Below the pieces are notes generated by a model that did no database searches, was not told where the DNA came from, and saw only the letters and a list, made by a program, of their open reading frames with translations. 64,000 nt of DNA from an uncultured virus (IMG/VR IMGVR_UViG_3300008107_000530) (lineage: Duplodnaviria; Heunggongvirae; Uroviricota; Caudoviricetes), in the IMG/VR virus record IMGVR_UViG_3300008107_000530; one strand, given 5' to 3'. Position numbers and translations under genes: made by a program. This document shows positions 11,380-40,334 of the stretch, one piece after another. How positions within the stretch are numbered: the first letter of the stretch is position 1; each line of letters begins with the position of its first letter.

Positions 11380-11416
11380 CGAGCGGCGAGCGGCCCAATC
11401 GGCCCCTAAAACGTAT

Positions 11417-13798: not shown

Positions 13799-13827
13799 TT
13801 GACACTTGTGTCATGTAGTGTTACAAT
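13799..13827 (+). promoter_or_regulatory. strong sigma70 early promoter
   Basis: TTGACA, 17-nt spacer, TG-t-TACAAT. Confidence 0.9.
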
Positions 13828-15972: not shown

Positions 15973-16017
15973 ACGAGGGTATACGTATCAACAAGTAATG
16001 AATCGGAGAAACACAAA

Positions 16018-19256: not shown

Positions 19257-19274
19257 ACATACAAGGAGAACGAG

Positions 19275-19487
19275 ATGCGAGATAAGAGAGAGTTTTTCCG
19301 ATTCGACCACCCCAAGGACATCATGATCGGCAAGGGACGTATCGTCTACGAACCGTCTTACGAGACGTGGATTCTGCCGGGGGGTATCCGCACCCGCGAT
19401 CAGGCTCGTGCCGAGTTAATGGCAAAGACCATCAACGAGATCACGCTTCGGCAGGAGGAATCCAAGCGGAAGGCGGTGCGTAAATGA
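19275..19487 (+). CDS. hypothetical protein
   Basis: 70 aa, AAGGAGAA RBS, WILPGG motif. Confidence 0.65.
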   Translation: MRDKREFFRFDHPKDIMIGKGRIVYEPSYETWILPGGIRTRDQARAELMAKTINEITLRQEESKRKAVRK

Positions 19488-19830: not shown

Positions 19831-20081
19831 ACGACCTTCCGCGAACCCCGTGGTTCGGTGCGCTGGAATACCCAGTACGCGAAGGTGTGTACGAGCGCAA
19901 GCTGTTCGACCACCACAATGCAGATCCCTTGATTGTTTACTCCTACTGGGATGGCAAGCAGTGGTATGTCGGTACGTACGCACCTGAAGATGCTATGGCT
20001 ATGGCCGAGAAGTACGGCCCGACGATGACCCTATACCGCGAATGGCGCGGACTAATCAAGGAGAACGAAGATGAAAGTTGA
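19827..20081 (+). CDS. hypothetical protein
   Basis: TPWF..PVREGVYER..SYWDGKQW..WRGL phage motif. Confidence 0.65.
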   Translation: MNDLPRTPWFGALEYPVREGVYERKLFDHHNADPLIVYSYWDGKQWYVGTYAPEDAMAMAEKYGPTMTLYREWRGLIKENEDES

Positions 20082-20250
20082 AGTAACTGAAGCACAAGTG
20101 GTAAACGACATGGGCGTGGTAGCCAGAGTGTTGTTGGTAGACGAGAACGTAGTACAGATAAACATCAAACAGGTCACCGGCTGGAACGACTGGATCGAAG
20201 TCTACGAGGCGGTCAAGCGCATCATGATGCTGATGGAGGTGAAGCAATGA
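20071..20250 (+). CDS. small hypothetical protein
   Basis: 59 aa (MKVEVTEAQ..), AAGGAGAA RBS. Confidence 0.55.
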   Translation: MKVEVTEAQVVNDMGVVARVLLVDENVVQINIKQVTGWNDWIEVYEAVKRIMMLMEVKQ

Positions 20251-23301: not shown

Positions 23302-24655
23302 GGTCATAAGAAAACTTCTTGTAGCACGCAAGCCGAAGTCCGTGCTCGAAATCAAGGACGCCGACCCTGATTGGTCACCATTGCGCCACTGCGTTGCACA
23401 CGATGTCGAGTGGACTATGGCGGACGATCTAGCTGCGTGGAAGCCTCAGAGCAAGTACGACGTTGGGTTGATTGGTCGGGTGCTTGAGCGTTTCAGTGTG
23501 TCCGACGCCCTGTTTCTGATGCACCGGATGTCCGAGTGCTGCAGCACGGTGGTTCTGCGTGTAAAACGAAGCAGTGAACTCGTCGCCGCGCTGCCCGCAC
23601 CGCAAGAGATGTACGTGGAGGACGACATCGGTGTTTATGTATATACAAGTACAAGCGCCGAAGCCGCACCGCTGCCCACCATCTTCGTGAACATCGCTTC
23701 GTACCGTGATGACCATGAACTGTGGGCGACGGTCGAAGATGCAGTAGCCAAGGCCGAGCACCCTGAACGACTGCGGTTTGCCGTAGTTGATCAGACCGTG
23801 TACCCTGCCCGAGAAGATAAGCTGGCGTTGGCCGCACCTGCGCAGATCGAGTATCTGTTTGTGGACTACAAGTTCAGCCGTGGCCCTTGTTGGGCACGAG
23901 CGGTGGGGTTCACGCTTTTGTACGACGAGGACTACGCGCTACAGGTCGATTCACATTCGCGGTTCGATCCCGGATGGGATACATGGTTTATACAAACAAT
24001 AGAACGCTTGAGGTCCAAGTCAAGCAAGCCTTACCTGTCCATGATGCCGTATGGGTTCACCTATGAGAACAACAAGGTGAAGCTGGATCGCTGGGGCTCA
24101 GCAACCGTAGGGCAGAAGCCCGCCCAAGATGGGCCGATGAGCGCCGTGGCTATCAACTATGCGGGTGCGATATGCGCACACGCCGATGATCTGGAGGGTA
24201 GCCGTATATCTGCAGGCTGCGTGTTCGCTCCTGCAGACCTGTTCAGGCAAGTGTTGATTGACCCGGCCCTGTACTTCTACGGTGAGGAGCACAACTTCAC
24301 GGTACGTGCTTTCACCCACGGGTGGGATCTGTTCTTCGTTGCAGGACAACCTGTCTTCCACCTGTTCAATGATACGAAGTGCTCCGTCCGTGCGCCGCAT
24401 TGGAACGAGGGGGATGACAAACAGCGGGCTAAGCGCTGGTGGACATACGATGAGCAGTCAAACAAGCGGCTGAAAAGTTTGCTGGTGGGCGGGGCAAACC
24501 TTGGGGCTTACGGGCTCGGCACTGCACGTACCCTAGCTGATTACGCTGACAAGTTTGGCATCGACTACCCGAACATGCGCGTGCGCGATGGCTTCGGGGA
24601 AAAGAAACAACCTGAGAACTCGGAGAACGAACAACATGGACCTGATAACTCTTGA
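23291..24655 (+). CDS. GT60-like (GlcNAc-transferase family) glycosyltransferase with degenerate methyltransferase-like N-terminus
   Basis: TIFVNIASYRD, HPERLRFAVVDQ, SRGPCWAR, LQVDSHSRF..WD, DP.LYFYGEE..RAFTHGWD, YGLG..RTLADY. Confidence 0.75.
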   Translation: MPLEVIRKLLVARKPKSVLEIKDADPDWSPLRHCVAHDVEWTMADDLAAWKPQSKYDVGLIGRVLERFSVSDALFLMHRMSECCSTVVLRVKRSSELVAALPAPQEMYVEDDIGVYVYTSTSAEAAPLPTIFVNIASYRDDHELWATVEDAVAKAEHPERLRFAVVDQTVYPAREDKLALAAPAQIEYLFVDYKFSRGPCWARAVGFTLLYDEDYALQVDSHSRFDPGWDTWFIQTIERLRSKSSKPYLSMMPYGFTYENNKVKLDRWGSATVGQKPAQDGPMSAVAINYAGAICAHADDLEGSRISAGCVFAPADLFRQVLIDPALYFYGEEHNFTVRAFTHGWDLFFVAGQPVFHLFNDTKCSVRAPHWNEGDDKQRAKRWWTYDEQSNKRLKSLLVGGANLGAYGLGTARTLADYADKFGIDYPNMRVRDGFGEKKQPENSENEQHGPDNS

Positions 24656-26372
24656 CTTTGAAACGTACTACGACAGGGAGTTCAGCCTCACGAAACTTAC
24701 AACTGAAGAGTACATACGCGATAAACGGTTTGAGGTTATCGGCGTGGGGCTCAAGGTCAACAACGGCGTAGTGGAGTGGGCAAGTGGGACTGAACAGCAG
24801 ATCAAAGATTGGTTACTCCAGTTTGACTGGGAAAACTCTATGGCGTTGGCTCATAACGCTATGTTTGATGGGGCCATTCTGGCTTGGCGGTTTGGCATTC
24901 TGCCTAACCTATGGCTTGATACTCTGTGCATGGGGCGGGCTCTGCACGGTGTGGAAGTCAGTAACTCCCTGGCAGCGCTAGCGCAGCGCGAGGGGCTCGG
25001 CACCAAGGGCGTGGAGGTGCTGACCGTAGCGGGTATGCGCCGCGAGGACTTCTCCAAGGAGCGGCTGGCTCGGTACGGGGACTACTGCGTCACCGACGTG
25101 GAGCTTACGTACCTGCTGTTCAAGAAGTTCTTACCCCTGTTCCCCAAGAAAGAACTGAAGCTCATAGATACAACGCTTCGTATGTTCATTGAACCTACGC
25201 TGCGGCTGGACAAGGATCTTTTGCAAGAGCACCTGCAGAGTATTCAGGAACAGAAGTCCAAGTTGCTGGCCGACAGTGGTGTGGAAGCATCGGATCTGAT
25301 GAGCAACCCAAAGTTCGCAGAGGTGTTGGCCAATCTTGGTGTAACGCCGCCGAGGAAGACGAGTCTGACCACAGGTAAAGAAACGCATGCGTTTGCCAAG
25401 AACGACGAAGACTTCATCGCATTGCTCCATCATCCGGACTGGCGCGTGCAAGGGTTGGTATCGGCACGTCTTGGAATGAAGTCAACGCTGGAAGAGACTC
25501 GCACCCAACGGTTCATTGACATAGCCGAGCGGGGCGCACTGCCGGTGCCGATCAAGTATTACGCAGCGCACACGGGGCGGTTCGGCGGGGACGACAAGAT
25601 CAACCTGCAGAACCTGCCGAGCCGAGGAGAGAACGCGGGGAAGNNNNNNNNNNNNNNNNNNNNNNNNAAGAAACAGTTTAAGCACGACCCGTACAAGCTG
25701 ATGGCATCACAAATTTACGGTAAGCCAACCACCGAGATCACAGACCCTGAACGGTTTGTAGGTAAGACAACGATCCTTGGTGCCGGGTACGGTATGGGCG
25801 CGGTGAAGTTTCACGCCCAGTTAAGGGGCTCAGAGGCGAACGTGGATCTGGACGAAGCCCGCCGAATCGTGGAGGTATACCGGAAGTCAAACCCGGCGAT
25901 CACCGGTTTGTGGCGACAGGCGCAGCTCATGCTGGTCGCGATGCTGCGGGACGAGCCGGCCATGCTGGGGCGCTCCGGTGTGCTGTCAATAGTGCCCGTG
26001 GAGAAAGCAATCCTGTTGCCTAGCAAGCTGATGCTGCGGTACGATGACCTGAAGGCGCAGGAGGGTGAGAAGGGGATCGAGTTCACCTACAAGACCCGTA
26101 AGGGGCGCACCCGCATTTACGGCGGGAAGGTCATCGAGAACGTCTGCCAAGCCATTGCCCGCTGCATCATCGGGGAACAGATGCTGCGCATTGCCATGAA
26201 GTACAAAGTTGTGCTGACAGTGCATGACGCTATCGCGTGCATCTGCAGAGACGAAGAAGTAAATGAAGCTCGGGCGTATGTTGAAGAATGTATGCGGTGG
26301 GTGCCGAAGTGGGCAGGAGGACTGCCTGTTAACTGTGAAAGCGGAGTAGGAAAAAGTTATGGCGACTGCTGA
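24636..26372 (+). CDS. polA: family A DNA polymerase with 3'-5' exonuclease domain (spans assembly gap)
   Basis: ExoI DFET, ExoII HNAMFD, ExoIII YCVTD; HTGRF..NLQNLP, motif B RFVGKTTILGAGYG, motif C VHDA; motif A falls in N gap 25644-25667. Confidence 0.9.
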   Translation: MDLITLDFETYYDREFSLTKLTTEEYIRDKRFEVIGVGLKVNNGVVEWASGTEQQIKDWLLQFDWENSMALAHNAMFDGAILAWRFGILPNLWLDTLCMGRALHGVEVSNSLAALAQREGLGTKGVEVLTVAGMRREDFSKERLARYGDYCVTDVELTYLLFKKFLPLFPKKELKLIDTTLRMFIEPTLRLDKDLLQEHLQSIQEQKSKLLADSGVEASDLMSNPKFAEVLANLGVTPPRKTSLTTGKETHAFAKNDEDFIALLHHPDWRVQGLVSARLGMKSTLEETRTQRFIDIAERGALPVPIKYYAAHTGRFGGDDKINLQNLPSRGENAGKXXXXXXXXKKQFKHDPYKLMASQIYGKPTTEITDPERFVGKTTILGAGYGMGAVKFHAQLRGSEANVDLDEARRIVEVYRKSNPAITGLWRQAQLMLVAMLRDEPAMLGRSGVLSIVPVEKAILLPSKLMLRYDDLKAQEGEKGIEFTYKTRKGRTRIYGGKVIENVCQAIARCIIGEQMLRIAMKYKVVLTVHDAIACICRDEEVNEARAYVEECMRWVPKWAGGLPVNCESGVGKSYGDC

Positions 26373-27508: not shown

Positions 27509-27661
27509 GTCTGCGGTGGCAGATCCCCTGTAAGGTGTGGGTGGGGGGCAGCGGTCTTCCGAGGGACCGATAACTACACCAGTCGGCACGAGAATCCTTT
27601 CTCCTCTCGGGAACCGATAAGCAGACGGCGGAACAGCTAACCCTGTTCTGCCTGTTCTGCC
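27509..27661 (+). ncRNA. putative structured RNA or 5' leader with anti-SD loop
   Basis: Non-coding, behind promoter; stems GTCTGC/GCAGAC, GGTGTGG/CTACACC, CGGTC/GACCG, CGAGA/TCTCG (loop ATCCTTTCTCC), GGCGGAACAG/CTGTTCTGCC. Confidence 0.55.
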
Positions 27662-27679
27662 ATTCCAACAAGGTACGAG

Positions 27680-29218
27680 ATGCAAATCATTGACAACAAA
27701 GCGCTGCTCTTGACACTGCGTGACCCTACCAAAGTTACGTCAGTCATCCCAAAGAGCAAGGTGGTCGGCGCTAACAAGGTGGCGGTGCATTGGGGTCTGG
27801 ACGAGGCACAGGTGCTGAAGAACCTGAAGATCAAGAACGTGCCGTCCCCCATCCTCAAAGAGTACGACTGGCCTGGGCTGCACGCCCCCTTTGAACACCA
27901 GAAGACAACCGCAGCGTTCCTGACATTGAACAAGCGGGCGTTCTGCCTCAACGAGCAGGGCACCGGCAAGACTGGCAGCGTCATCTGGGCAGCAGACTAC
28001 CTGATGAAGAAGGGCCGAATCCGGCGCGTGCTGGTGGTGTGCCCCCTGTCTATTATGGACTCGGCATGGCGTGCGGACCTGTTCAAGTTCGCAATGCACA
28101 GGTCGGTGGATGTGGCTTACGGGTCAGCAACCAAGCGCAAGGAAGTTATCGCAAGCCAGACAGAGTTCGTCATCGTCAACTTTGATGGTCTGGAGATCAT
28201 TGCCGAGGACGTTGCAGCGGGCGGGTTCGACCTCGTGGTGGTTGACGAAGCCAACGCATACAAGAATGTGCAGACCAAAAGATGGAAAACGCTCAACAAA
28301 CTGCTGCGTCCTGATACGTGGTTGTGGATGCTGACAGGAACTCCCGCAGCGCAGTCCCCTATGGATGCCTACGGTTTAGCTAAGTTGGTCAATCCGTTAG
28401 CTGTGCCGAAGTTCTTCTCCTCCTTCCGCGACATGGTGATGTTCAAGGCGACCCAGTTCCGCTGGATACCCAAGCCGACCGCCACGCAGACGGTGTTCAA
28501 CGCCCTGCAGCCAGCCATCAGGTTCACCAAAGCCGAGTGCCTTGACCTCCCCGAGATGACCTACGTGGACCGCCACATAGCGCTGACCAAACAGCAGGAG
28601 CAGTATTACAAGGTGCTCAAGAACAAGATGATTGTCGAAGCTGCGGGGGAGGAGATCACTTCCGTCAATGCAGCCGTCAACCTGAGTAAGCTACTGCAAC
28701 TGTCTTGTGGTGCGGTCTACGCAGACACAGGTGATACGGTCACCTTCGACATCAAGAACCGATACAACGTACTGCTGGAAGTCATCGAAGAAGCAGCCAA
28801 GAAAGTTTTGGTGTTCGTCCCGTTCCGCAACTCCATCGAACTTGTGGCAAGCCAGCTTACCAAGGACGGGTACACAGTAGAAATCATCAATGGAGATGTG
28901 CCAGCCAATAGACGCACTGAAATCTTCAAACGCTTCCAAGAAACGCCAGATCCGCGTATCCTTGTCATTCAACCGCAAGCTGCATCGCACGGTGTCACGT
29001 TGACCGCAGCCGATACGGTTGTATGGTGGGGGCCTACTAGCTCCTTGGAGACCTACTCACAGGCAAACGCACGGGTACACCGGGCAGGGCAGCGCCACCC
29101 CACAACGGTGGTACGGCTCCAAGGATCGAACGCGGAACGCCACGTGTATCAAATGCTAGACACTAAAGGAGATGTCCACACACAAATAGTTGACCTCTAT
29201 AAGAGGCTACTAGCATAG
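27680..29218 (+). CDS. SNF2-family helicase
   Basis: EQGTGKT, VVVDEA, LTGTP, HGVTLT, QANARVHRAGQ. Confidence 0.9.
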   Translation: MQIIDNKALLLTLRDPTKVTSVIPKSKVVGANKVAVHWGLDEAQVLKNLKIKNVPSPILKEYDWPGLHAPFEHQKTTAAFLTLNKRAFCLNEQGTGKTGSVIWAADYLMKKGRIRRVLVVCPLSIMDSAWRADLFKFAMHRSVDVAYGSATKRKEVIASQTEFVIVNFDGLEIIAEDVAAGGFDLVVVDEANAYKNVQTKRWKTLNKLLRPDTWLWMLTGTPAAQSPMDAYGLAKLVNPLAVPKFFSSFRDMVMFKATQFRWIPKPTATQTVFNALQPAIRFTKAECLDLPEMTYVDRHIALTKQQEQYYKVLKNKMIVEAAGEEITSVNAAVNLSKLLQLSCGAVYADTGDTVTFDIKNRYNVLLEVIEEAAKKVLVFVPFRNSIELVASQLTKDGYTVEIINGDVPANRRTEIFKRFQETPDPRILVIQPQAASHGVTLTAADTVVWWGPTSSLETYSQANARVHRAGQRHPTTVVRLQGSNAERHVYQMLDTKGDVHTQIVDLYKRLLA

Positions 29219-29265
29219 CCCACAAGAACGTACTAGAATTCAAACCCCGACAACAGGAGAACGAC

Positions 29266-29697
29266 ATGGACGACACGGTTGCAACGACCGAGAGCGAAGC
29301 CTCCCCCCAAATTTCAGTAGACCGGTTGGTACGTGCATTCCTCAAGATGCGCACCGCCAAGGAGAAGCTGGTCAAAGAACACGAGGAAGAGGTCGCCAAG
29401 CTGGAAGAAGGTCTCAAGACGATCAAGCTGGCGCTGCTCGGGTACTGCAAAGACAACAACATCGATAGCGCCAAGATCGCTGGGGTAGGCATGTTCTACC
29501 GTGGCGTGAAGAAGCGCTACTGGACAAACGATTGGGAAGCTATGGGTAGGTTCGTGCTTGAACACGAAGTGCCCGAGCTTTTTGAGAAGCGCCTGCACCA
29601 AGGGAACATGGAATCCTTCTTGGAGCAGCACCCGGAATTGCTACCACCCGGGCTGAACGTGGATAGCGAATTCACCATAACTGTCAGGAGGGCTTAA
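29266..29697 (+). CDS. conserved phage replication-region protein
   Basis: Coiled coil plus DWEA..LFEKRLHQGNM..PPGLN; AGGAGAA RBS. Confidence 0.7.
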   Translation: MDDTVATTESEASPQISVDRLVRAFLKMRTAKEKLVKEHEEEVAKLEEGLKTIKLALLGYCKDNNIDSAKIAGVGMFYRGVKKRYWTNDWEAMGRFVLEHEVPELFEKRLHQGNMESFLEQHPELLPPGLNVDSEFTITVRRA

Positions 29698-29933
29698 TGG
29701 CCGAAGACAAATACGTTGCAATTGATAAGGTCGCTGACTACTTCCAAGTCTCGGTCTCAACCGTGCGGTCATGGGTGCGTACTGGGGCCGTGCCTGAAAC
29801 CGCATACCTCAAGATCGGAAAGACCTACCGGTTCCAACTGCCAGAGGTAGAAAACGCTTTGCGGGCACACAACGCAGCCAAGTCCGCAATGCTGACCCAA
29901 GCGGCTGACTCAAACCCCGACCAAGATCTTTAA
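29697..29933 (+). CDS. excisionase/MerR-type HTH DNA-binding protein
   Basis: IDKVADYFQVSVSTVRSWVR.G.VP..LKIGKTYRF. Confidence 0.75.
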   Translation: MAEDKYVAIDKVADYFQVSVSTVRSWVRTGAVPETAYLKIGKTYRFQLPEVENALRAHNAAKSAMLTQAADSNPDQDL

Positions 29934-29945
29934 GGAGAACAAACC

Positions 29946-30854
29946 ATGAGTAACGAGATTGCACTGTTTAAGGGCGGCGTCCCGGCCTACCTGCGTCAAC
30001 TGGAAGATGACACCACGAACGCCCTGGCGGGTGGAGAGATGGGGCAACGCCGCGTCTCTATCAAGGGTGGCGTGTTCCGCGAGATGATTGGCTCCAAGGA
30101 ATACCGCACTTCTGAAGAACGGTCTATGGGTGTGATCATCATCAAGGCCGCACCGAGCGTACATCGCACGTACTTTGAAGGCACCTACGTCGAGGGGCAG
30201 GCAAGCTCCCCCGTTTGCTGGTCTACCAACTCTCAGACCCCAGCGCCGGAAGTTCCCGAAGACCAACGCCAAGCCTCCAAGTGCATGGACTGCCCCCAGA
30301 ACGTAAAGGGTTCAGGCCAAGGTGAGACCCGCGCTTGCCGGTATCAGCAGCGGATCGCTGTAATGCTGGAGGGTGAAGTTGAGAAGCGCGAGGTGTATCA
30401 GGTGGTACTGCCACCGACCTCAGTGTTCGGTGACGGTGAGAAAGGTAAGCTGCCTCTGCAGGCATACGCCCGCCATCTGAGGGCTCACGGCACCCCTATC
30501 GCCGGGGTCATCACCGAGATGCGGTTCGATACCGCAAGCCCCACGCCCAAGCTGATCTTCAAGCCCGTACGCCCGATCACCGAGGAAGAACTCGAAATCG
30601 TGCAGGAGATGAAGAACTCCAAGGAAGCGGAAGAAGCCATCAAGCTGACCGTGGCACCGCCGAAGCCGAAGGAACCGCTGTTTGAAAAGCCGACCACCTT
30701 AGCAGCTAAGTCGGTTGCTAAGTCGGTTGCTAAGCCGACCCCGGTTGTTGAAGAAGAGGAAGAAGCACCTCCCCCCAAGAAGGTGGAAGCCAAGAAGCCC
30801 ACTGCAAGTGCTACCAGTCTGGAAAGCCTTGTGGATGGTTGGGACGACGAGTAA
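29946..30854 (+). CDS. putative single-stranded DNA-binding/annealing protein
   Basis: RVSIKGGVFR, CWS..CMDCPQNVKGSG..C, Lys/Pro linker, acidic WDDE tail; lies between helicase and primase. Confidence 0.6.
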   Translation: MSNEIALFKGGVPAYLRQLEDDTTNALAGGEMGQRRVSIKGGVFREMIGSKEYRTSEERSMGVIIIKAAPSVHRTYFEGTYVEGQASSPVCWSTNSQTPAPEVPEDQRQASKCMDCPQNVKGSGQGETRACRYQQRIAVMLEGEVEKREVYQVVLPPTSVFGDGEKGKLPLQAYARHLRAHGTPIAGVITEMRFDTASPTPKLIFKPVRPITEEELEIVQEMKNSKEAEEAIKLTVAPPKPKEPLFEKPTTLAAKSVAKSVAKPTPVVEEEEEAPPPKKVEAKKPTASATSLESLVDGWDDE

Positions 30855-30922: not shown

Positions 30923-33769
30923 ATGCAGACAAACGAATTTCTATCCGCAGTCCTTGGGGGAGATGGGTACATCTGTGTGTTTGGCGCGAACCCTGAAAAG
31001 AAGCGCATCATCCAGAAGCTGTACTCCACCGTAGAAGCTGCATCAGCAACAGCAGCGAACCTGATGAACGAAGGCTTTGATGCCTACTTTGGGTTGGCTA
31101 CATATACCACCGACCAATCACGGAGGGCAGACAACGCGAAGGGTTTGAAATCCTTCTTTCTGGATATTGATTGCGGGCCACACAAGACCGAGCAGGAGGG
31201 GTATCCGGGCGGACAGACAGATGGCATCGTTGCACTAAAGCAATTTTGCCGTAGTACCAGACTCCCTCGACCAACGCTGGTGAACTCCGGTCGCGGTGTG
31301 CATGTGTACTGGATCTTGGAAGAGGCAGTCACACCTGAGGAGTGGTTACCCGTTGCCGAAGGGCTCAAAGCACTGTGCGTAACCCACGGGTTGAAGGCAG
31401 ACCCTGCGGTCACGTCTGACATTGCTCGGGTGCTACGGCTCCCCGGCACACTGAACTTCAAGGACAACCCCCCAAGAACGGTTAGCTTGCTCGGGGACAT
31501 TGCACCTTCCGTAAGTTTCGACACGTTCAAAGATATTGTGGGGGCCGTATCCAAACGCCCTCAGTTATCCACAGCGGCTTCTGACGACGACATCTCTGCG
31601 TCGATCCTCGGAAACTACCGCAACGTCTTTAAGACCATCATGATGAAGACGGAGGCTGGGCGCGGTTGCGCACAACTGAAGTTCATCATTGACGAACAAG
31701 AGACCATGCCGGAGCCTATGTGGCGCGGCGGGTTGTCGATTGCCAAGTTTTGTGTGGATGCAGAAGAAGCTGCGTACGAGATTTCCGGTAGGCACCCGAA
31801 CTACACCGTAGAAGAAACGAACCACAAGCTGGCGCAGATCAAGGGGCCGTATACCTGTGAGACGTTTGAAAACCTGAACCCAGGTTCACTGTGTGGGGAC
31901 TGCCCCAATAGGAACAAGATCAAGAGCCCAATCGTACTGGGCCGTGAAGTGCTGGAGGCAGCAGAAGAAGACAACGTAGTTGAAGACACCCCCGAGAGCA
32001 TGCCCGCAGCGGGCAAGCAGACTTACGTGATCCCCAAGTACCCGGCTCCGTTCTTTCGCGGTGTGAATGGTGGGGTCTACAAGCGCACCAAGGACAGGCA
32101 AGGGGACCCGGTTGAAATCCCCATATATCACAACGATTTGTATGTGATCCGTAGATTGACCGACCCAGAACTGGGCGAGTCAATCGTCATCCGACTGCAC
32201 CTCCCAAAAGACGGGGTACGAGAGTTCACCATTCCTCTGGCCTCGGTGTTGTCCAAAGATGAATTCCGTAAGCACATGGCAATGAATGGTGTTGCCGTAA
32301 TCAGGATGGACGAACTTATGTCGTACACAACTGCATGGGTCAACAAGCTCCAAGCTGAAGCCGGGGCTGACATCGCACGCCGACAGTTTGGCTGGGTCGA
32401 TGACAACATGGGGGCATTCGTTGTCGGCACGCGAGAGATTCACGCCGACCGTATTGAGCCGAACCCACCGTCGAGTTCCACGGTGCGGATGTTCCCCGCG
32501 CTGCAGTCCAAGGGGACGCTGGAAGAGTGGATCAAGATGGCTGAGTTCTACAACCGCCCCGGCATGGAGATGCACCAGTACGTGATTGGGCTGAGCTTCG
32601 GCTCCCCGCTGGTGGCGTTCTCAGCGGACGGCTCGGCCCTGTTCCACATGCACAGTAAGGACCCGGGCATCGGTAAGACCACCGCTATGCGTGTGGGCAA
32701 CTCGATCTGGGGCGACCCGGAAGACATGATGTGTCAGGAGCGGGACACGTTCAACTCCAAGATGAATCGTGCGGAGGTGTACAAGAACATCTTCCTGAGC
32801 ATTGATGAGTTGACGAACGTCAGCCCCAAGGACGCAAGTGACTTCCTGTACCAACTGACTGGGGGCAAGCAGCGCAACCGGCTCGGCATTGGCGGGAACG
32901 TGGAGCGCTACCGGGGTGACCCCTGGAAGATGAACGCCACTAGCACCGGCAATACAAGCCTGATCTCCCGCGTCACCATGTACAAAGCCATGCCCAAGGC
33001 CGAGTCGGTACGGGTGCTGGAGCACCACGCGGTGGCGTATAACTTTGGCGACAAGGCGATCACGGACGAGTTCAACCGGGATCTGATGGGTAACTACGGG
33101 GTTGCATGTGTACCCTACATGCAATACTGCATTCGGAAGAGGGACGAAGTTCGTGATCTGTTCTTCTCGGTTCAGGGGCGCATAGACAAAGCAGCGGGGT
33201 TGGTGCAGCCCCACCGGTTCTGGTCTGTGCAGGCAGCTTCGGCATTGGCCGGACTGCTGGTCGCCAAACAGCTCAAGCTGATCAACTACGATCTGACCGC
33301 GCTGTTCAAGTGGGTTATCGCGTTGTTGGACGCGAACAAGGCTGGGTACATTGCGTCGAATGACGACGCCGAAAGCATCCTGACCTCGTTCCTTGCGGAG
33401 AACTACAACAACATCCTGCGCATCAAGAGCACCGACGACGCCCGGAATACGGAGGCATCAGATGTGTTCATCGTGCCAGACAGCACACCACGGTTCCAGC
33501 TTGTCGCCCGGTATGAGTACGACGTGAAGCGGCTGTATCTGATGCCGAAGCCGTTGCGGGAGTGGTGCAACAAGCTGCAGCTTTCCTACCACGATTTGGT
33601 ATCAAACCTGAAGACTGGATCTACCCGAGGCGTCATCAAGAAGATTCGTATGGGTAAAGGCACCCGCATGAACCTGCCTCCGATTGACGCGCTGATGCTG
33701 GATTGCTCAGGCTTTATGTCTGAAGAACGCGAAGAAGAGTTGGCAACCTTGCACTCTAGACAGGCGTGA
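30923..33769 (+). CDS. primase fused to DUF927 (superfamily 3-like helicase) domain
   Basis: FFLDID, VNSGRGVHVYW, D.ARVLRLPGT.N primase motifs; C..C..C Zn site; PGIGKTT Walker A, IDELTN. Confidence 0.85.
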   Translation: MQTNEFLSAVLGGDGYICVFGANPEKKRIIQKLYSTVEAASATAANLMNEGFDAYFGLATYTTDQSRRADNAKGLKSFFLDIDCGPHKTEQEGYPGGQTDGIVALKQFCRSTRLPRPTLVNSGRGVHVYWILEEAVTPEEWLPVAEGLKALCVTHGLKADPAVTSDIARVLRLPGTLNFKDNPPRTVSLLGDIAPSVSFDTFKDIVGAVSKRPQLSTAASDDDISASILGNYRNVFKTIMMKTEAGRGCAQLKFIIDEQETMPEPMWRGGLSIAKFCVDAEEAAYEISGRHPNYTVEETNHKLAQIKGPYTCETFENLNPGSLCGDCPNRNKIKSPIVLGREVLEAAEEDNVVEDTPESMPAAGKQTYVIPKYPAPFFRGVNGGVYKRTKDRQGDPVEIPIYHNDLYVIRRLTDPELGESIVIRLHLPKDGVREFTIPLASVLSKDEFRKHMAMNGVAVIRMDELMSYTTAWVNKLQAEAGADIARRQFGWVDDNMGAFVVGTREIHADRIEPNPPSSSTVRMFPALQSKGTLEEWIKMAEFYNRPGMEMHQYVIGLSFGSPLVAFSADGSALFHMHSKDPGIGKTTAMRVGNSIWGDPEDMMCQERDTFNSKMNRAEVYKNIFLSIDELTNVSPKDASDFLYQLTGGKQRNRLGIGGNVERYRGDPWKMNATSTGNTSLISRVTMYKAMPKAESVRVLEHHAVAYNFGDKAITDEFNRDLMGNYGVACVPYMQYCIRKRDEVRDLFFSVQGRIDKAAGLVQPHRFWSVQAASALAGLLVAKQLKLINYDLTALFKWVIALLDANKAGYIASNDDAESILTSFLAENYNNILRIKSTDDARNTEASDVFIVPDSTPRFQLVARYEYDVKRLYLMPKPLREWCNKLQLSYHDLVSNLKTGSTRGVIKKIRMGKGTRMNLPPIDALMLDCSGFMSEEREEELATLHSRQA

Positions 33770-33975
33770 AGTACGAGATAAACCCCGACGGCGTGCCGAT
33801 GTCCATTGAATGGAAGAAGTTTGTCGTCGGAGCTTCCATGTTTATACCGGCTGTCAACGTCACGCGCCTCGTTCGGCAGATGAGGTCAGTAGCCCGTACC
33901 AACGGCATAAAGGTACATCACGTGGAGCGCATCGAGAACGGCAAGCTAGGGGTACGGTTTTGGCGGGTCATGTGA
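33766..33975 (+). CDS. conserved phage hypothetical protein
   Basis: IEW.KF.VGASMFIP..IENGKLGVRFWR; GTGA overlap. Confidence 0.7.
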   Translation: MKYEINPDGVPMSIEWKKFVVGASMFIPAVNVTRLVRQMRSVARTNGIKVHHVERIENGKLGVRFWRVM

Positions 33976-33987
33976 TACCATGCCGTC

Positions 33988-34054
33988 CCGGTGGCGCAAT
34001 GCCACCTGTTGTCTCGTTCTCCTTGTACCCCGGCCTAGCGCCGGGGTCTTTTTT
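33988..34054 (+). ncRNA. putative small RNA with anti-Shine-Dalgarno seed
   Basis: TG-a-TACCAT extended -10 (33973-33981); 5' hairpin GGTGGC/GCCACC; unpaired TGTTGTCTCGTTCTCCTTGT; terminator hairpin; seed complementary to early RBSs. Confidence 0.65.
34027..34054 (+). terminator. Rho-independent terminator at junction of early and late arms
   Basis: ACCCCGGC-CTAGC-GCCGGGGT followed by CTTTTTT. Confidence 0.85.
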
Positions 34055-37000
34055 AGTCCTCTTGCTCGGCTGCGGTCTGCAGCAGTTCATCGCGTAGGGA
34101 CTTACTCAGCACAACGCCGTGGTACATCGTCTGGGTGGTCCGCTCGTGCTGGGCCAGCGACCGCTTGATGGTTGCCTCCATATCACCGAGTCCCGGGTGT
34201 TTGACGTAAAGCTCCTGCAGCTTCTCGCGTGCCTCCAACGCACCGTCAATATCCCCCATCCGACTTGCGGTGTACATCTCCCGCAGGTACTTGGTTCGGT
34301 TGGTTGTCACCGCCTTGTCGATACCCTTCAGCATCGAATTGATCTCAAGCTGCTTGTTGTACTCTGCAGGGGCAAAGCCAAAGATCTGTGCTGCCACATT
34401 CCAAGGCCCAATGTCTCCGACGATGGGGTCGCCGCGAAGGGTGGTCGCACCTTCTGTCGCAAACCGTACCGCCTTCATGGGGTTAGCCGCAAACACCGGC
34501 ACCATAGCCTCCATACCGCGCTGATACTCCCCGTCGTTGATCATCTGTAAACCACGTTGCAGGCGACTAGCGATACCGTAGGCGGGACCCCCGAAAGTTT
34601 GTGCAGCCCATTCACCGAGCGTTTCAGAGCCGGACGACACCGGGCTGGTGCGGAAGATCAGATTGCTCAGGCCAACTCGCTCGGCAATGCTGAGACCAGT
34701 TACCTCGTTTACCAGTCCTTTGTACATGGACTCGCCCGTGAACCCACGCACCACAGCGCCGAAGTCTTCGTCGTCATCTTCCTTGAACATGTTGTACAGC
34801 ATGGCGACCACACCGAACAACGGCATACCCTGCAGACCAGCAAACAACCCAGACGTAGCCATGATGCCCGCGAGTTGCTTGAACGCAGCGCGACGGACTT
34901 CAGGAGTCTCCCCCCGCAGGGCTTCCTTGGCAGTCTTGAACAACAGGTAGTTCATCAAGACGCCGTACTTCTTGAACATGAACAAGACCTTACCCACGGC
35001 ATTCTGCGCGATGGGCGGTGCGGTAGCTGCGGAGGAGCCGCCGTTGGTCATTTCTGCCAAGTAGATCGCTTGATGGGCGGCACGTGTTTCCTTGTCCGCG
35101 TCCGATAGCGCACGCTCTTCTGCGGTCGCATCTTTACCGTTGAGGCGCTGCAACTCCAAGTCATACGCAGCCATCATGGAGACTTCCCGGTTCAGGCGCT
35201 CGGCATGGTGGAACATGAACCCGCTGAATGCGTTTATCCGAGTCAGGGCGCTTTTACGATCATCAACCTCCAATGTGTCGTACATCATGGAGCGGTTGAA
35301 CTGCCCCATCTTGTTTGCTTCGCGCACAAGAGCCTCGTACCGCTTGACTTCTTTGGGTAGATTAGGGTCGCTGAAGTCGTAGTTATCCAGGGAAGGAGCG
35401 GCACGCCGCTTGTCCTTCTCACCCTTGGCCCCGAGAATTTCTACTTCTCTACCGAACCCGCTGGACATGAACGTCTTGTACGCACGGGTAATTGCTTTAC
35501 CAGCATCTCCGTAGCCGTACTTGCCACCCAACATCGGCATGACGATGATCGGAACCTGCGTCAAGTTCACCAAAGCCGAGGAGACGTTGAAGCCGAGCAA
35601 GTAGTTGAAGCCGACCGTGTTGATAAGCTGTGCCGTCTGACTGACAGTGGGGCTGACAGCGAACTTGATCCGGCGCTCCATCTCGTCAAGATATTCCTTG
35701 GCAAGCTGGTTGTCTTCGGCAGCGCCCTTGCCCATCTTGATCACGTCTTCGCGCATATCCTGCTGCACTTCGTACATGCGGGCTGCGTACTTCATGTTCG
35801 ACAACTGCCGAGACATCGAGAACGTCTTCTCACGCAGCGCACGGATGGAGTCTTTCTTGAAGCCCTCGGTCTCCTTACGACGTTGGAATGACTGGGCAAT
35901 CGCGGTTTCCGGCAGCGTAGTCAGATACATACGCAAGACGGACTCCATAGCCTCGTCAAAGCGTTGTTGCTCCACCGAACCCTTCGGGCGGCTCTTCTCC
36001 ATCGTCTCCAGAATACCGCGTACAAACGACGCGGGCGGGGCGTTCTTGTAAGACAGTTCTCGTACGTTGGAGAACTTCTGTACGTCGGTGGCACCTGCAG
36101 CTTTCACTGCAGCAATCGCGCGGTCACGCTCCCGAGGCGATTCAAACGCTTCCACGTAGAGTTCGGTCTGCCCCTTGGCATCCTTCGCGTTGTACGACAG
36201 CCAGTAGTTGCCGTTACGGGTCAGTGGGAAGTACGGGTCGATTTCCCCCTTGGACGCTAGCTTGGCATGCAGTTCATCCTTCAACCGTACACGGGCAGCG
36301 GGGTCATCTATAGATGAATCCACACGAGAGTCGATTGCACCAAGGAGTTCGTTGTACAACTCTGCGTAAGCATCACGCATGTTGATGTACAGGTTACGTG
36401 CCCCGGGCGTGGAGTCCAACAACTTGTTCAGACGATCCCAGGTATCGAGAGCATTCTGTAGATCCACTGCCGAGGCAAGTGCGTACTTGTCTTCGTAGAA
36501 CTTGCGGGGCCGAGTGGGGTCGATCTTGAGCGTGGTGCTGTCGTAGACCACGGTATCAAACCGTTCTGTTGCGGTCGGACCCGAACGACGAGCCCACTCT
36601 TCAGCCTTGCGGACCACCCCTTCAATCTTCTGGTTCCGAGCGTTCTCATCCCCGGCGCGTTCACGCACCAACTCATTGATGCGCGGTGCTTGAGGTAGGT
36701 ACTTCTTGGCTACGTCTACGAACACCTCAAGAGGCATCACCGAGAAACCAATCCGCCGAGCAGTGTCCCCAGCCGTGGCAAAGAATCTGCTGGCAGCGTT
36801 GGCAGCATCTTCACCGACAACTTGCGCGGGGTAGTCAAACATCGAGTCGATTGCGCGAGAGACGATAGGCGCTTTCGGGTTCACCGTCGCTGCAAACAGC
36901 AGATCCGCTTCGCGGTACTCCGGGGCTGCAGACAGGATAGCCTTGATCGCACGGTCGGCTGAGTCATACGCAGTCTCGATAGATACCGAGGGCTTACCCA

Positions 37001-40000
37001 TGAAGCTGCGGAACATGTTGCGGACGATGTTGACGAACCGCTCCCATACCGTGATTGCCGCGCCCTTGGGGTTGATGGAGTTCAGCTTCGCCTTGAACTC
37101 CTCGTTGGCCCAGGTTTCCGCTACGAACTCATCCAGACTTGTGGCACCGTATGCGGTGTCGAGGCTGTCCTTTACATCGTTGAACAACGTGGTAAGTTGT
37201 TTCGTGTAGGGGTTCATCGGGTTGGCAGTGACGTGTGAGGTCATTGCATGCCCCAGTTCATGGAACAACACATGGTTGTTCATGCCGAACACGGAATCCA
37301 ACGAGATGGAGTTGGTGCGCGGGTCGTATAGCCCCGCTACACGTTTACCTGTGGCATCAGTCAAGTTGTCCACCGCCTGGACGGTGGTGTTCATCGGAAT
37401 GCTCAGATACAGCTTGGCCAGCTCAGCACTAGGTCCTTCGGACTCCGCAGCGAGTAGGCGCAACGCCTGTTTCAGGTCTCCGTTGTACAGCGCATGGCGC
37501 ACCACAGGGTGCAGGGGTACTGCGAACTGCCCAGCTTCTTCCAGACTCTTCGGTGTCCAGCCAAGATCTCTCCAGACTTCAGGCGGGGCCACTTTCTTGG
37601 GTTTGGCATACGCAGCGATCTCTCGTGCTGCTTCGATGGTGTCTTTTGCCGCAGCTTCCGCGTAGTCCCGGGTTTGTTCCTGTTCGGCATCGTGCCGAGC
37701 CATACCAACTTCGGTATTTCTGAGGGAGCGCTGATGCTCCGCTACAAACTTGTTGTACAGCGCCTTGGCGTCTGGAGACAGCTTCTCCTGCACCCACTTC
37801 TGCGCTTGCTGTGCAACCTTACCACCCGTGCCTTGGAACCGCGCCTTCTCAACCGAACCTTCACCTTCAGCACGCCGGTACTTTGAGGTCGGGTTCACCA
37901 CATCGAACGCAATGTCGTACAGGACATCGATCAGGTTCGATGACTTGGAGAAGTACGCCCGGGCAGCGGCAGCGGTCTCGCTGAGCTTGCGCGTTGTAGC
38001 TACAACACCAAGAATGGTCTTGCGGTCCCGAGGCGGGAGCTTCTCACCAGACGTAGGTTGATACCCCTTGCGGTCCAGTTCAGCCCAAGTCTTGCGTGCA
38101 TTCTCCTGCGCCCTGCGCTCATCCGGCGTCAGGTCTGCGTCTTCCGGTGCAGGTTTGGCTTCCTTCTTTTCAGTCTGCGGCGCGGGTTTTTCTATAGCTG
38201 GCGCAGATTTTTTATCGCTTTCCGTAGGTGGGGCAACTTTTTCTATAGGTGGCGCGGGTTCAGTGGGAGGTGCAGCAGCTTCATCGGCCTTGCGCTGTGC
38301 TTCCTCTGCACGCTCCAACATTTGTTGGGGTGTAAATTTAGGCGTAGAAGGGGTAGGTGCGGTCAGCAGCGAGGGGTCGAAGTCGTACCCAGTAGTTTCT
38401 TTCCACTGCTTGAGCTTCTGTTCAAGCTCGGCCTCAATCGCTTCGTACTCTGCACGTGCAGGTGAAGGTGCCTTGCCTTGTCGTGGCCGGAACGGTTCCC
38501 GCCCATCGGCGGTCATCAACTCACCCTTGCGCGTATTGATCCGACGCAGGTCCTCAAGGAGGGATTCCTGGGTTACCGGGCCAGCGGGAGCGACAGGCGG
38601 CGCAACAGGGGGCGCAACAGGCGGTGGGGGAGGAGGTGTGACAGGGGGCGGCGGTGCGGCGGCTTCTACTGCAGGGGGTGCAACTCCCTCTCCCATAGCA
38701 GGGCTTGGAGGAGGTTCTGCAGGGCGTACCACTGAAGGTTGTTCAGGTGCGACAACTCCTGCGGGGGTTGCTTCTCCAACGGGTTGCACAGGTACTGAAA
38801 CGCCCTCTCCAACAACGGGAGGGGTAGGTTGTCCAGCAGCATCTTGTTGTCCTTCCGGAGGGGCAGCAGCCTTACGCTTATCAAGCTCGGCTTGGACCGC
38901 CTGAATCAGATCCGACTTTTGTTGCTCTGGAGGCTTGGCCAACTGATGTTGCAGTGTGGTTTCCAGTAGACGGACAGGCCACGCATCCATCGGAGGGATT
39001 TCGGGCGCACCGGGAGGGGCGGCTTCCGCAGCGGGGGCAGGTTCGGGAGTAACCGCAGCTTCAGTAGTAACGGGGGCAGTAGCTTCAGTAGTAACGGGGG
39101 CAGTAGCTTCAGTAGTAACGGGAGCTTCGGGAGTAACGGGAGCTTCGGGAGTAACGGGCGGCTCAATGGCAGGAGGTGCCGGAGGGGCAACGGGGGTTTC
39201 AGGCGTGGGGGGTTGTTCCGCCGCAGCCCGCTCGTCCAAGATTCGCTGAGCCTCAGACTTCTGCCGCTGTGCTTGCGCAACTGCACCGGGAGCACCGAAC
39301 GCAGTGCCACCAATCGCCCCCTTGATGCTGGCGTTGAGGATACGGTCGATGTTCTTCTGGCTGAATACTTCTCCTGTGGCACCCGCAGTCTGCTCGGCCA
39401 AGATACCAAGAAGTTCTTGCGCACCTTCCGTCGCGGCTTCGCCCAATCCAGTCTTCGCCAATTCCTTGGCGATGTTTACCTTCAACGACTGAGGAACAAT
39501 CGTGGACTGCTGAATGAGTTCATTGGCGACCTTGGCACGGGCGGCAGGGGAGAACTGCCCCAACAAACGCGCAGGGATGATCGAATCCAACGCAGCTTGC
39601 GCAGCACCGAAAGTAATTGCGACACCCGGAGCAAGGTTACCCGTTTCCTCAAAGATGCCCTGAAATGTGCTTGGGGCATTCAACCCCAACGACGCGGTGC
39701 CGAGACCGATGTTGGTTCCGCGTGAGGCCCCCCTAGCCGCAACCTCTGCACCATAACGATCAGCAGCGCGTGCCGCGAGTCTCTCGGCGTAGATCTTCGC
39801 CGCGTCTTCAGACATCCCGCGTGTGGCGGCGGTCTGTGCGGCTTTCTCCGCAGCAAGACGTTCCAACCCGCTGGTCGCTACACGCTTACCAATCGCTCCA
39901 GATGCACCTGCACCCGTAAGCATGGCGATCATGTCTGGAGTCAGTTCGCCAAGAGACTCCGCTATGTATCCAGGCAGATCACCCGCACCGCGAATATCTC

Positions 40001-40334
40001 TAAACGACTTGAACGCGGTGGGGTACTTGAGTTCGGCTTCTTGTTGCTTGGCCTGAGCTTCCGCAAGTTGTTCCCGAGCATAAGCCTCGTTACCAACGAG
40101 AGACCCCGCGAGTGCGGGGATCAGGTCGGTGACGGTACTACCCAGGCCAGACACAGCGCGGCCAAAGCCGCCCTTGATAAGCTGCCCCAGTCCCAGTTCC
40201 CGGTAGTCCGGACGATACCCAAACTTTTGTTCTGCAAGAGCGGCAAGCCGCTGTGCCTGAGCCTGTACTACTTCATCCGGTGTGGAGTCGGGAAACGATA
40301 CAGGCCCATAGTTGGGTATCTGGACTACTTTCAC
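34053..40334 (-). CDS. large internal virion/ejection (polyvalent-type) protein with zincin motif
   Basis: 2093 aa, last late gene; Pro-rich linker; GLYDP..HVLFHELGH..LDEFVAE metallopeptidase motif. Confidence 0.7.
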   Translation of the reverse strand: MKVVQIPNYGPVSFPDSTPDEVVQAQAQRLAALAEQKFGYRPDYRELGLGQLIKGGFGRAVSGLGSTVTDLIPALAGSLVGNEAYAREQLAEAQAKQQEAELKYPTAFKSFRDIRGAGDLPGYIAESLGELTPDMIAMLTGAGASGAIGKRVATSGLERLAAEKAAQTAATRGMSEDAAKIYAERLAARAADRYGAEVAARGASRGTNIGLGTASLGLNAPSTFQGIFEETGNLAPGVAITFGAAQAALDSIIPARLLGQFSPAARAKVANELIQQSTIVPQSLKVNIAKELAKTGLGEAATEGAQELLGILAEQTAGATGEVFSQKNIDRILNASIKGAIGGTAFGAPGAVAQAQRQKSEAQRILDERAAAEQPPTPETPVAPPAPPAIEPPVTPEAPVTPEAPVTTEATAPVTTEATAPVTTEAAVTPEPAPAAEAAPPGAPEIPPMDAWPVRLLETTLQHQLAKPPEQQKSDLIQAVQAELDKRKAAAPPEGQQDAAGQPTPPVVGEGVSVPVQPVGEATPAGVVAPEQPSVVRPAEPPPSPAMGEGVAPPAVEAAAPPPPVTPPPPPPVAPPVAPPVAPAGPVTQESLLEDLRRINTRKGELMTADGREPFRPRQGKAPSPARAEYEAIEAELEQKLKQWKETTGYDFDPSLLTAPTPSTPKFTPQQMLERAEEAQRKADEAAAPPTEPAPPIEKVAPPTESDKKSAPAIEKPAPQTEKKEAKPAPEDADLTPDERRAQENARKTWAELDRKGYQPTSGEKLPPRDRKTILGVVATTRKLSETAAAARAYFSKSSNLIDVLYDIAFDVVNPTSKYRRAEGEGSVEKARFQGTGGKVAQQAQKWVQEKLSPDAKALYNKFVAEHQRSLRNTEVGMARHDAEQEQTRDYAEAAAKDTIEAAREIAAYAKPKKVAPPEVWRDLGWTPKSLEEAGQFAVPLHPVVRHALYNGDLKQALRLLAAESEGPSAELAKLYLSIPMNTTVQAVDNLTDATGKRVAGLYDPRTNSISLDSVFGMNNHVLFHELGHAMTSHVTANPMNPYTKQLTTLFNDVKDSLDTAYGATSLDEFVAETWANEEFKAKLNSINPKGAAITVWERFVNIVRNMFRSFMGKPSVSIETAYDSADRAIKAILSAAPEYREADLLFAATVNPKAPIVSRAIDSMFDYPAQVVGEDAANAASRFFATAGDTARRIGFSVMPLEVFVDVAKKYLPQAPRINELVRERAGDENARNQKIEGVVRKAEEWARRSGPTATERFDTVVYDSTTLKIDPTRPRKFYEDKYALASAVDLQNALDTWDRLNKLLDSTPGARNLYINMRDAYAELYNELLGAIDSRVDSSIDDPAARVRLKDELHAKLASKGEIDPYFPLTRNGNYWLSYNAKDAKGQTELYVEAFESPRERDRAIAAVKAAGATDVQKFSNVRELSYKNAPPASFVRGILETMEKSRPKGSVEQQRFDEAMESVLRMYLTTLPETAIAQSFQRRKETEGFKKDSIRALREKTFSMSRQLSNMKYAARMYEVQQDMREDVIKMGKGAAEDNQLAKEYLDEMERRIKFAVSPTVSQTAQLINTVGFNYLLGFNVSSALVNLTQVPIIVMPMLGGKYGYGDAGKAITRAYKTFMSSGFGREVEILGAKGEKDKRRAAPSLDNYDFSDPNLPKEVKRYEALVREANKMGQFNRSMMYDTLEVDDRKSALTRINAFSGFMFHHAERLNREVSMMAAYDLELQRLNGKDATAEERALSDADKETRAAHQAIYLAEMTNGGSSAATAPPIAQNAVGKVLFMFKKYGVLMNYLLFKTAKEALRGETPEVRRAAFKQLAGIMATSGLFAGLQGMPLFGVVAMLYNMFKEDDDEDFGAVVRGFTGESMYKGLVNEVTGLSIAERVGLSNLIFRTSPVSSGSETLGEWAAQTFGGPAYGIASRLQRGLQMINDGEYQRGMEAMVPVFAANPMKAVRFATEGATTLRGDPIVGDIGPWNVAAQIFGFAPAEYNKQLEINSMLKGIDKAVTTNRTKYLREMYTASRMGDIDGALEAREKLQELYVKHPGLGDMEATIKRSLAQHERTTQTMYHGVVLSKSLRDELLQTAAEQED

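Follow-up and report, generated by a model that had tools for sequence, protein, structure and literature searches.

What occupies the 77-nucleotide (nt) gap between the two converging gene arms of an uncultured lake phage? The locus (33976-34052) lies in a 64,000-nt stretch of DNA, a phage-like contig with a base composition of 56% G+C (IMG/VR record IMGVR_UViG_3300008107_000530, Caudoviricetes); we call the whole stretch the window, and all positions are counted from its first letter. An earlier reading of the sequence only had proposed that the gap is a discrete small RNA (sRNA) gene with a seed antisense to the ribosome binding sites of early and replication genes, complementary to them beyond the common Shine-Dalgarno (SD) core, and this central proposal is supported by conservation, strand, shuffled controls, arm bias and seed/target co-variation. 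We consider it probable that the gap holds the gene for a trans-acting anti-SD sRNA of about 67 nt, which masks the SD and start sites of early/replication mRNAs and so lowers their translation.

Anatomy of the predicted sRNA

The last gene of the + strand arm, which we read as the early/replication arm (see below), is a small conserved gene of 69 amino acids (aa) at 33766-33975, whose product ends in GKLGVRFWRV[M/L/V] (alignment A2, 10 orthologues). Its TGA stop sits within a promoter-like box, TGTGATACCAT (33971-33981, + strand), which has the form of an extended -10 element, with TG at 33973-33974 and the hexamer TACCAT at 33976-33981. The predicted sRNA runs from 33988, a 5' end placed by inference 6-7 nt past the hexamer, to 34054 on the + strand. 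It folds into a 5' hairpin of 6 base pairs (bp), GGTGGC-gcaat-GCCACC (33990-34006), a CU-rich seed of 20 nt, TGTTGTCTCGTTCTCCTTGT (34007-34026), that holds the anti-SD core TTCTCC and is unpaired in both the minimum free energy (MFE) and the centroid folds, and an intrinsic terminator (34027-34054) made of an 8-bp GC stem (34027-34047) and T6, the T-run overlapping the TAA stop of the converging 2093-aa gene. The MFE of the gap is -28.1 kcal/mol, versus -18.9 +/- 2.4 kcal/mol in shuffles (z = -3.8), and none of 200 shuffles folds as well. The -10 element, hairpin, unpaired seed and terminator all lie where the sequence-only reading had placed them; it had put the length at about 65 nt, and we predict about 67.

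Pairing of the seed with start regions

Five + strand sites complementary to the seed directly precede start codons. In the start region (19260-19277) of open reading frame (ORF) 19275-19487 (70 aa), 19260-19275 is a perfect complement, 16 of 16 nt, of 34012-34027, with a duplex energy of -28.6 and a net energy of -20.6 kcal/mol, and that of ORF 20071-20250 (59 aa; 20057-20073) holds a contiguous complement of 12 nt whose net energy, -23.2 kcal/mol, is the best of 78 start regions. Ahead of polA, the DNA polymerase gene (24636-26372; start region 24622-24638), GGAGAACGAACAACA (24622-24636) pairs with 34007-34022 in runs of 9 and 6 nt around one bulged C; the polA start itself is confirmed, since 11 of 13 orthologues, as called, share the N-terminus M(D/N)LITxDFETY. 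The remaining two are a 10-nt match before a 143-aa gene (29266-29697; 29255-29268), which is the most consistent target across the family, and a 9-nt match before a 302-aa gene (29946-30854; 29932-29948). The SNF2 helicase gene (27680-29218, + strand) has an interrupted match, ACAAGG..ACGAGA, in its start region (27660-27682; -17.2 kcal/mol), with longer matches in other lineages, and CAAGGAGAA occurs ahead of 13107 and at 18578. All of these matches except that of the helicase had been noted before, and each was verified in the sequence.

The earlier label SSB-like for gene 29946 is unsupported: its product has no Pfam hit and falls in PHROG families that have no assigned function. The PHROG label 'minor head protein' for the 143-aa protein is a lead only, as are the language-model neighbours of the two best-conserved target genes, 'Pam3 gp33-like' and 'Pam3_Gp34'.

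Pairing of this kind extends, as had been claimed, beyond what any sequence with an anti-SD core would give. When the seed was shuffled with CTCC held fixed, the mean of the three best duplexes was -18.2 +/- 1.6 kcal/mol versus -24.9 kcal/mol observed, and none of 1000 shuffles equalled it; when the 8-nt core TTCTCCTT was held instead, 2 of 1000 did. Net binding, for which the whole 67-nt RNA was cofolded with 60-nt start regions and the cost of unfolding was charged, gave a top-three mean that 0 of 100 shuffles matched. It ranked 20071, 29266, 19275, polA and 29946 in that order, which are the five targets named by the sequence-only reading, and nine of the ten best start regions are on the + arm. 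Among 14 genomes there are eight in which no more than 3 of 200 flank shuffles equal the top three contiguous matches of the genome's own sRNA.

The complementary sites are also concentrated on one arm. Matches of at least 9 nt number 203 genome-wide, and 44 of them fall in sense start windows, where 3.6 are expected; 40 of 380 genes on the sRNA strand are hit versus 4 of 333 on the opposite strand (Fisher 6e-8). GGAG is followed by A at 116 of 180 sites on the sRNA arm and at 28 of 101 on the other (p = 3e-9), the corresponding counts of genes in the window alone being 12 of 40 and 1 of 38. Median net binding in the window is -9.2 kcal/mol for the sRNA arm and -6.1 kcal/mol for the other (p = 0.0004). 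The two arms differ in their SD variants, the early/replication arm using a private extended SD of the GGAGAA type, and the structural arm GGAGT or GGAGG.

Co-variation of seed and targets

Seeds differ between genomes, and the start regions differ with them. In the window the sRNA sequence TCTCGTTCTCC / UCUCGUUCUCC faces GGAGAACGAGA in the start regions of several targets. Genome G008 has TCTCGCTTCTCC / UCUCGCUUCUCC in the sRNA and GGAGAAGCGAGA and AGGAGAAGCGA in the start regions of its 134-aa and 295-aa genes; for the same pair of genes G010 has GUCUUCUUUCUCC in the sRNA and GGAGAAAAGAAGA, with one bulge, in the start regions. G003 combines TCTCTCTCC / UCUCUCUCC with GGAGAGAGA at three genes, and in G004 and G013 the loop AACATTCTCCTGTT (G004) / AACAUUCUCCUGUU meets the start regions AACAGGAGAATGTT (G004) / AACAGGAGAAUGUU in matches of 14, 14, 13, 12 and 11 nt. 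In G011, AACTCTCCTGTT / AACUCUCCUGUU pairs with AACAGGAGAGT / AACAGGAGAGU ahead of the orthologue of a 140-aa gene. At the SNF2 helicase gene, G002 has GTCGTTTCATCT / GUCGUUUCAUCU in the sRNA and AGATGAAACGAC / AGAUGAAACGAC at the site, and G007 has GCCGTTTCATCT / GCCGUUUCAUCU and AGATGAAACGGT / AGAUGAAACGGU, a compensatory change between the two genomes; helicase matches measure 12 nt in G002, 11 in G007 and L021, 10 in G005 and L024, and 9 in G003.

We measured this by comparing the longest match of a gene's start region to its own sRNA with that to the sRNAs of the other genomes, and the permutation p-values that follow overstate independence because the 14 genomes fall into about eight independent lineages. 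The 140-aa gene (143 aa in the window), whose match to its own sRNA is at least 9 nt in 9 of the 14 genomes, gave 9.36 nt (own) versus 6.60 nt (cross), a difference reached in 0 of 20000 permutations. The helicase gave 7.21 versus 5.60 nt (p = 0.0002) and the 300-aa gene (302 aa in the window) 7.36 versus 6.42 nt (p = 0.001); the nuclease was marginal (p = 0.04), and a double-centred energy matrix for all 14 genomes gave p = 0.0005. None of the control genes was significant (HTH protein, 0.15; primase, 0.21; 85-aa gene, 0.57), and because these share the same tree, relatedness alone is not the source of the signal. The co-variation in relatives that had been proposed as a check is seen for the 140-aa, helicase and 300-aa genes, which are the conserved targets. 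The DNA polymerase, which the sequence-only reading had named as a target, pairs strongly in the window, and this pairing is specific to the window.

Conservation and strand

Relatives of the locus were collected in two ways. Viral contigs searched with the primase yielded 25 loci (100, 81, 60, 50 and 47% identity), with the same layout wherever a locus spans the gap. With the 69-aa gene as query we obtained 160 loci (80 metagenome and 80 viral) from lakes and oceans, among them 85 distinct segments of at least 90 nt. The element is kept in 71 of these 85, and along the primase series down to 47% identity; the 71 pass a test for a hairpin and a T-run, carry one or two 5' hairpins and CU-rich stretches, and have a median length of 74 nt. 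Thirteen others are marine-type variants with a long 3' hairpin and no clear T-run, and one locus (L061) is without the element. CTCC stands ahead of the terminator in 69 of the 71 family members, where shuffles lead one to expect 23.5, and 63 members have it unpaired; in many lineages it lies in a hairpin loop, for example GCAAC-AUUCUCCU-GUUGC.

Four marine loci (L088, L093, L095 and L100, at about 1700-1850) have three to four tandem units of about 11 nt (GGTGTTCACTG or AGTGAACCCC) between the box and AUUCUCC, and end in a long hairpin with no clear T-run.

The helices are conserved as RNA. In the 5' hairpin of 14 relatives 90% of cells are paired, three pairs show compensatory changes, and the G-U pairs fit the + strand only. 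In alignment A3 95% of cells are paired, with three compensatory pairs in helix 1 and 19 G-U or U-G cells, and 0 of 500 shuffles reach its covariation score; in alignment A4 (26 sequences) a 5-bp helix around an invariant CUCCU loop is 100% paired, with two compensatory pairs and 10 G-U cells. We also built a covariance model (R1) on 14 sequences from the subfamily to which the window belongs. It gives the window 83.6 bits, and of 14 genomes that were fetched in full it detects the element in 11 with an expectation value (E) below 0.01. Its extra matches in G004, in G005 and at 11094-11175 of the window are plain terminators. At L189 9610-9684 (- strand; about 49.6 kb in G002) there is a second sRNA-like element, with a TGATAATGAT box, a hairpin AGTGCTTTCAGCACT, an unpaired CTGTAATCTCTCCCCCTCC and a terminator (R1 22.9 bits, E 0.002), which may be a paralogue with a different seed.

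We place the sRNA on the + strand because the G-U pairs, the T-runs and the box all point there; MFE is uninformative on strand (+ strand -27.7, - strand -27.2 kcal/mol; + better in 42 of 71). Could the conserved signal instead belong to the - strand, as a leftover or live ribosome binding site for a tiny gene beyond the 2093-aa gene? Read on that strand the seed is a textbook site (ACAAGGAGAACGAGA), and a start codon follows in some relatives, such as L033 with its 14-codon frame. In 31 of the 71 members, the whole window subfamily included, no start codon stands 4-10 nt after GGAG, and the frames that do exist have 4-53 codons and are merely antisense to the small gene. The G-U pairs found in the two helices would turn into A-C mismatches if the RNA came from the - strand, and the T-runs and -10 box are oriented for the + strand. 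A micro-ORF there is not conserved and was rejected as a candidate, and we find the - strand explanation barely credible.

The promoter-like box

Is the gap a transcription unit of its own, or only the end of another? Right behind the stop of the small gene, TAnnnT is present in 66 of 70 distinct contexts while its three middle positions vary freely, and the last sense codon of the gene is NTG whichever residue (M, L or V) it encodes. A G stands 15 nt from the stop, where the first hairpin starts, in 52 of the 70. The match of the hexamer to TATAAT averages 4.27 behind TGA stops (49 contexts), where a TG precedes it, and 4.79 behind TAA stops (14 contexts), where the TG is missing and 12 of the 14 hexamers are TATACT; behind TAG stops (7 contexts) the average is 4.29. 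TGTGATAnnnT occurs just twice in the window, in the sRNA box and in the early promoter at 12004-12032 (copy at 12022), the two sharing the form TGTGATAnnAT. In L016 (6806-6850; the same in L150) there are two tandem copies of the box together with the bases upstream of it (GGGGGATCTGTGATAAAAAA / GGGGGGATCTGTGGTAAAATCG), and in the second copy TGG replaces the stop codon and the hexamer, TAAAAT, is better. On sequence alone, the sRNA appears to have its own promoter.

A box resembling that of the sRNA is found elsewhere in the window: gene 10402-11133 too has TGATACCCT behind its stop and after it, within 11133-11175, a strong terminator (R1 14.5 bits, E 0.89) that has the look of a plain one.

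It might be supposed that there is no separate RNA gene, and that the early operon simply ends here in its 3' untranslated stretch and terminator, which perhaps stabilise the mRNA or stop convergent transcription, with the CU stretch as a passenger. The element does sit exactly where converging arms need a terminator, its T-run abutting the stop of the 2093-aa gene, and there is no -35 element at the box, which counts against the sRNA gene as we propose it; an RNA derived from a 3' end would need no promoter at all. A plain terminator, however, leaves unexplained the TAnnnT in 66 of 70 contexts with its free middle positions, the duplicated box of L016, the excess of CTCC in the family, and the co-variation between the linker and the start regions. 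We regard this alternative as improbable, and the evidence from the seed would stand even for an RNA cut from the 3' end of the operon.

Comparison with known RNAs

The nearest phage analogues in principle are the c4 RNA of P1 and P7 and the CI RNA of P4 (RF01695), which mask ribosome binding sites of the phage's own same-strand genes, as is proposed here. Those RNAs belong to temperate phages and serve an immunity operon, in which they have one or two dedicated sites, whereas the present seed is SD-centred and multi-target. RF01695 was absent from the 14 Rfam matches at E <= 10 in a 141-nt scan, and from the other Rfam scans of the window and its relatives. In its proposed role as one phage factor for many early mRNAs the sRNA also recalls RegA of T4, which binds the start regions of many early mRNAs and so lowers their translation; RegA is a protein, while here an RNA would recognise its targets by base pairing.

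In the open-access literature that was searched we found no description of this sRNA family or of such a mechanism in phages. According to the parts of a 2025 review (PMC12197685) that deal with them, phage sRNAs with known targets are few, and most are from temperate coliphages or are directed at the host. The same parts describe four other phage-encoded regulatory RNAs: sar of P22 and OOP of lambda, which act on phage mRNAs and are cis-antisense to a single gene, and VpdS of VP882 and PreS of lambda, which act in trans, chiefly on host RNAs; none of the four is credited there with an SD-mimicking seed that fits one class of early start sites in its own phage.

Outside phages the closest likeness is to the 'toxic' or double-hairpin sRNAs of Betaproteobacteria. 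The window has no Rfam match at gathering thresholds. With relaxed thresholds the best family is RF02278, at 24.4 bits for the window and 41.2 bits for the best of 30 relatives' loci, both short of the gathering score of 50. The layout of that family is an unpaired 5' CU stretch, a hairpin with a CU loop, and a terminator hairpin. L177 aligns with the model over all 64 positions, although four pairs of helix 1 are non-standard; in the alignment of the window the model's first hairpin is deleted, and an extra 5' hairpin stands upstream of the match. Both kinds of RNA are 57-92 nt long, with unpaired CU-rich stretches complementary to ribosome binding sites and a terminator of GC hairpin and U-tail, and the consensus start of RF02278, UGUCUCCUC, is similar to UGUCUCG/UGUCUCCUC in the phage family. 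RF02278 includes ncS03, ncS05, ncS27 and ncS62 of Burkholderia cenocepacia, as given in portions of PMC5688073 and PMC4603805, and a portion of the former reports that the predicted interactions of double-hairpin sRNAs concentrate on start regions. The bacterial members are chromosomal and multi-copy, with a native role that is not established, whereas the phage RNA is single-copy, phage-borne and fixed beside one gene, with a seed that follows the start regions of the phage. Judged from sequence and fold, the phage RNA would resemble the RF02278 sRNAs in how it works; it scores below family membership and differs in layout and genomic setting.

This likeness speaks for a different role, in which the RNA is real and has host mRNAs as its chief targets: copied from these CU-rich sRNAs or mimicking them, it would damp host translation or metabolism, and its matches to phage genes would be a by-product of a shared SD type. 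Full-length matches to RF02278 below threshold are found not only in the window but also in relatives (41.2, 39.6 and 38.3 bits), and many SD sites would be open to pairing with the generic core UUCUCC. Members of RF02278 carry unpaired CU stretches complementary to ribosome binding sites, and over-expression of ncS27 slows growth, according to a portion of PMC5688073. Neither the tracking of the phage's own start regions, genome by genome, by seed flanks outside the core, nor the concentration of matches on one phage arm, would be expected if host mRNAs alone had shaped the seed. We think a mainly host-directed role rather unlikely; host-directed and phage-directed roles are in any case not exclusive.

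Proposed mechanism

In the mechanism that we favour, masking of the phage's own start sites, host sigma-70 polymerase would transcribe the sRNA from the extended -10 box, in which the stop codon of the last early gene is embedded; the transcript would end at its own intrinsic terminator and be capped by the 5' hairpin. The unpaired 20 nt would present UUCUCC, a look-alike of the 16S rRNA tail, together with phage-specific flanks, and would pair, in certain mRNAs of the phage itself, with the SD site and spacer and at times with the start codon as well; nearly all of these mRNAs come from the same-strand early/replication arm. Such pairing would keep 30S subunits off the start sites, and less early/replication protein would be made. 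Because the sRNA would be expressed from every genome copy, it would accumulate as template copy number rises and could thereby bring about a dosage-dependent shut-off of the early module. In this scheme it is the making of the RNA, the repressive rather than activating effect of pairing, and the timing that we infer.

A number of results weigh against it. Moderate hits (<= -14 kcal/mol) are not in excess, 144 of 1000 shuffles reaching the observed number. The duplex energy of the whole probe, GC hairpin included, fails to separate real from shuffled sequences (142 of 200 as good in the window), and contiguous-match, seed-only and cofold measures were used in its place. The flank-shuffle test is weak in 6 of the 14 genomes (7 of 200 in G010, 26 in G003, 34 in G006, 38 in G009, 41 in G014 and 62 in G012), several of which are short contigs with 18-53 start regions. 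The start codons came from a single codon-usage gene caller that rewards SD motifs, a bias that the controls share, and at least two of its errors in the window were corrected by hand for the duplex and cofold tests. A genome's own probe ranks first or tied first in just 7 of the 14, which amount to about eight lineages, and the own-versus-cross comparison for polA is not significant (p = 0.055), its pairing not being conserved in orthologues. Contigs of three small lake metatranscriptomes gave nothing over 33700-34300, and comparison with GenBank phages found no cultured relative of this phage.

Nothing in the analysis separates repression from activation, which also counts against masking and leaves room for an RNA that works in another way: it might engage an RNA-binding protein as a decoy, or activate or protect the mRNAs with which it pairs. 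The predicted RNA has a long U-tail and hairpins, as chaperone-bound sRNAs do. Its pairing, however, covers the SD and often the start codon itself, which is the classic geometry of repression, and there would be no need for the sequence of a protein decoy to change along with start regions. We judge both forms of this explanation distinctly improbable.

Starting from masking of the early/replication start sites as the favoured reading, a larger scheme may be sketched that is possible and, as a whole, doubtful. The phage would have two translational gene classes defined by their SD sites, GGAGAA with its flanks for early/replication genes and GGAGT or GGAGG for structural genes, and the look-alike of the 16S tail would recognise only the first. 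It would then be a timer driven by copy number that hands ribosomes from replication to virion genes, an RNA counterpart of T4 RegA co-evolving with its regulon, and its sub-threshold likeness to RF02278 would point to shared descent, a phage having captured a host sRNA or a host a phage one.

Other features of the window

Genes of the - strand occupy 26-10054, the large terminase (7788-9335) among them. The + arm (about 12.1-34.0 kb) encodes an AAA ATPase, a DUF2201/VWA protein, a family-A DNA polymerase, a PD-(D/E)XK nuclease, an SNF2 helicase, an HTH protein and a DUF927 primase/helicase, and closes with the 69-aa gene ending at 33975. The 2093-aa protein (34053-40334, - strand), which has an LPD39 'large polyvalent protein' domain, opens a second run of - strand genes. 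Two near-consensus sigma-70 promoters (12004-12032 and 13799-13827, + strand; TTGACA-17-TACAAT with TG, 11 of 12 matches) head the + arm, and because of them we read it as an early/replication arm transcribed by host polymerase.

Within this arm, 14842-17373 (+ strand) encodes the AAA_5 (MoxR-like) ATPase and then the DUF2201 metallopeptidase-like/VWA protein; a PHROG label of 'HNH endonuclease' for the latter was set aside, as its Pfam domains give it no support. Just upstream of the promoter at 12004-12032 lies a non-coding array of about 450 nt (11417-11860) with more than 20 motifs of the AATGTTCG(G/A) type at a 32-nt period and inverted copies at 11795-11853, possibly the iterons of a replication origin, or else an array of operators. 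The same non-coding region has two 32-nt copies, 94% alike, of CGAAACCAGTTCTCCGAGCAGCGG.. (11248-11279 and 11356-11387), and in both GTTCTCC, the core motif of the sRNA, is on the + strand. Masked stretches, 41 N in total, lie inside polA (25644-25667) and inside a 1205-aa gene (44646-44662).

No tRNAs were found in the window, and no integrase or lysogeny module was seen among the window genes scanned. There are no relatives at the DNA level among 50,697 GenBank phage records, and three versions of the 69-aa gene gave no match to the same records by tblastn; nor was a relative of this gene found in one genome for each of 185,579 bacterial and archaeal species. Among the nearest cultured phages, pelagiphages HTVC027P and HTVC023P share the terminase alone (44-45%) and Pseudomonas phage Rollin the primase alone (30%); in Rollin the convergent genes overlap, with no such element between them.

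Implications

The sRNA family is conserved and widespread in phage contigs from lakes and the sea, and its targets can be read from co-variation alone: they are the phage's own early and replication genes. If this is true, timing in a lytic phage would be set at ribosome binding by an RNA that imitates the ribosome's own docking sequence, and phages could carry private Shine-Dalgarno 'dialects' for different classes of their genes.

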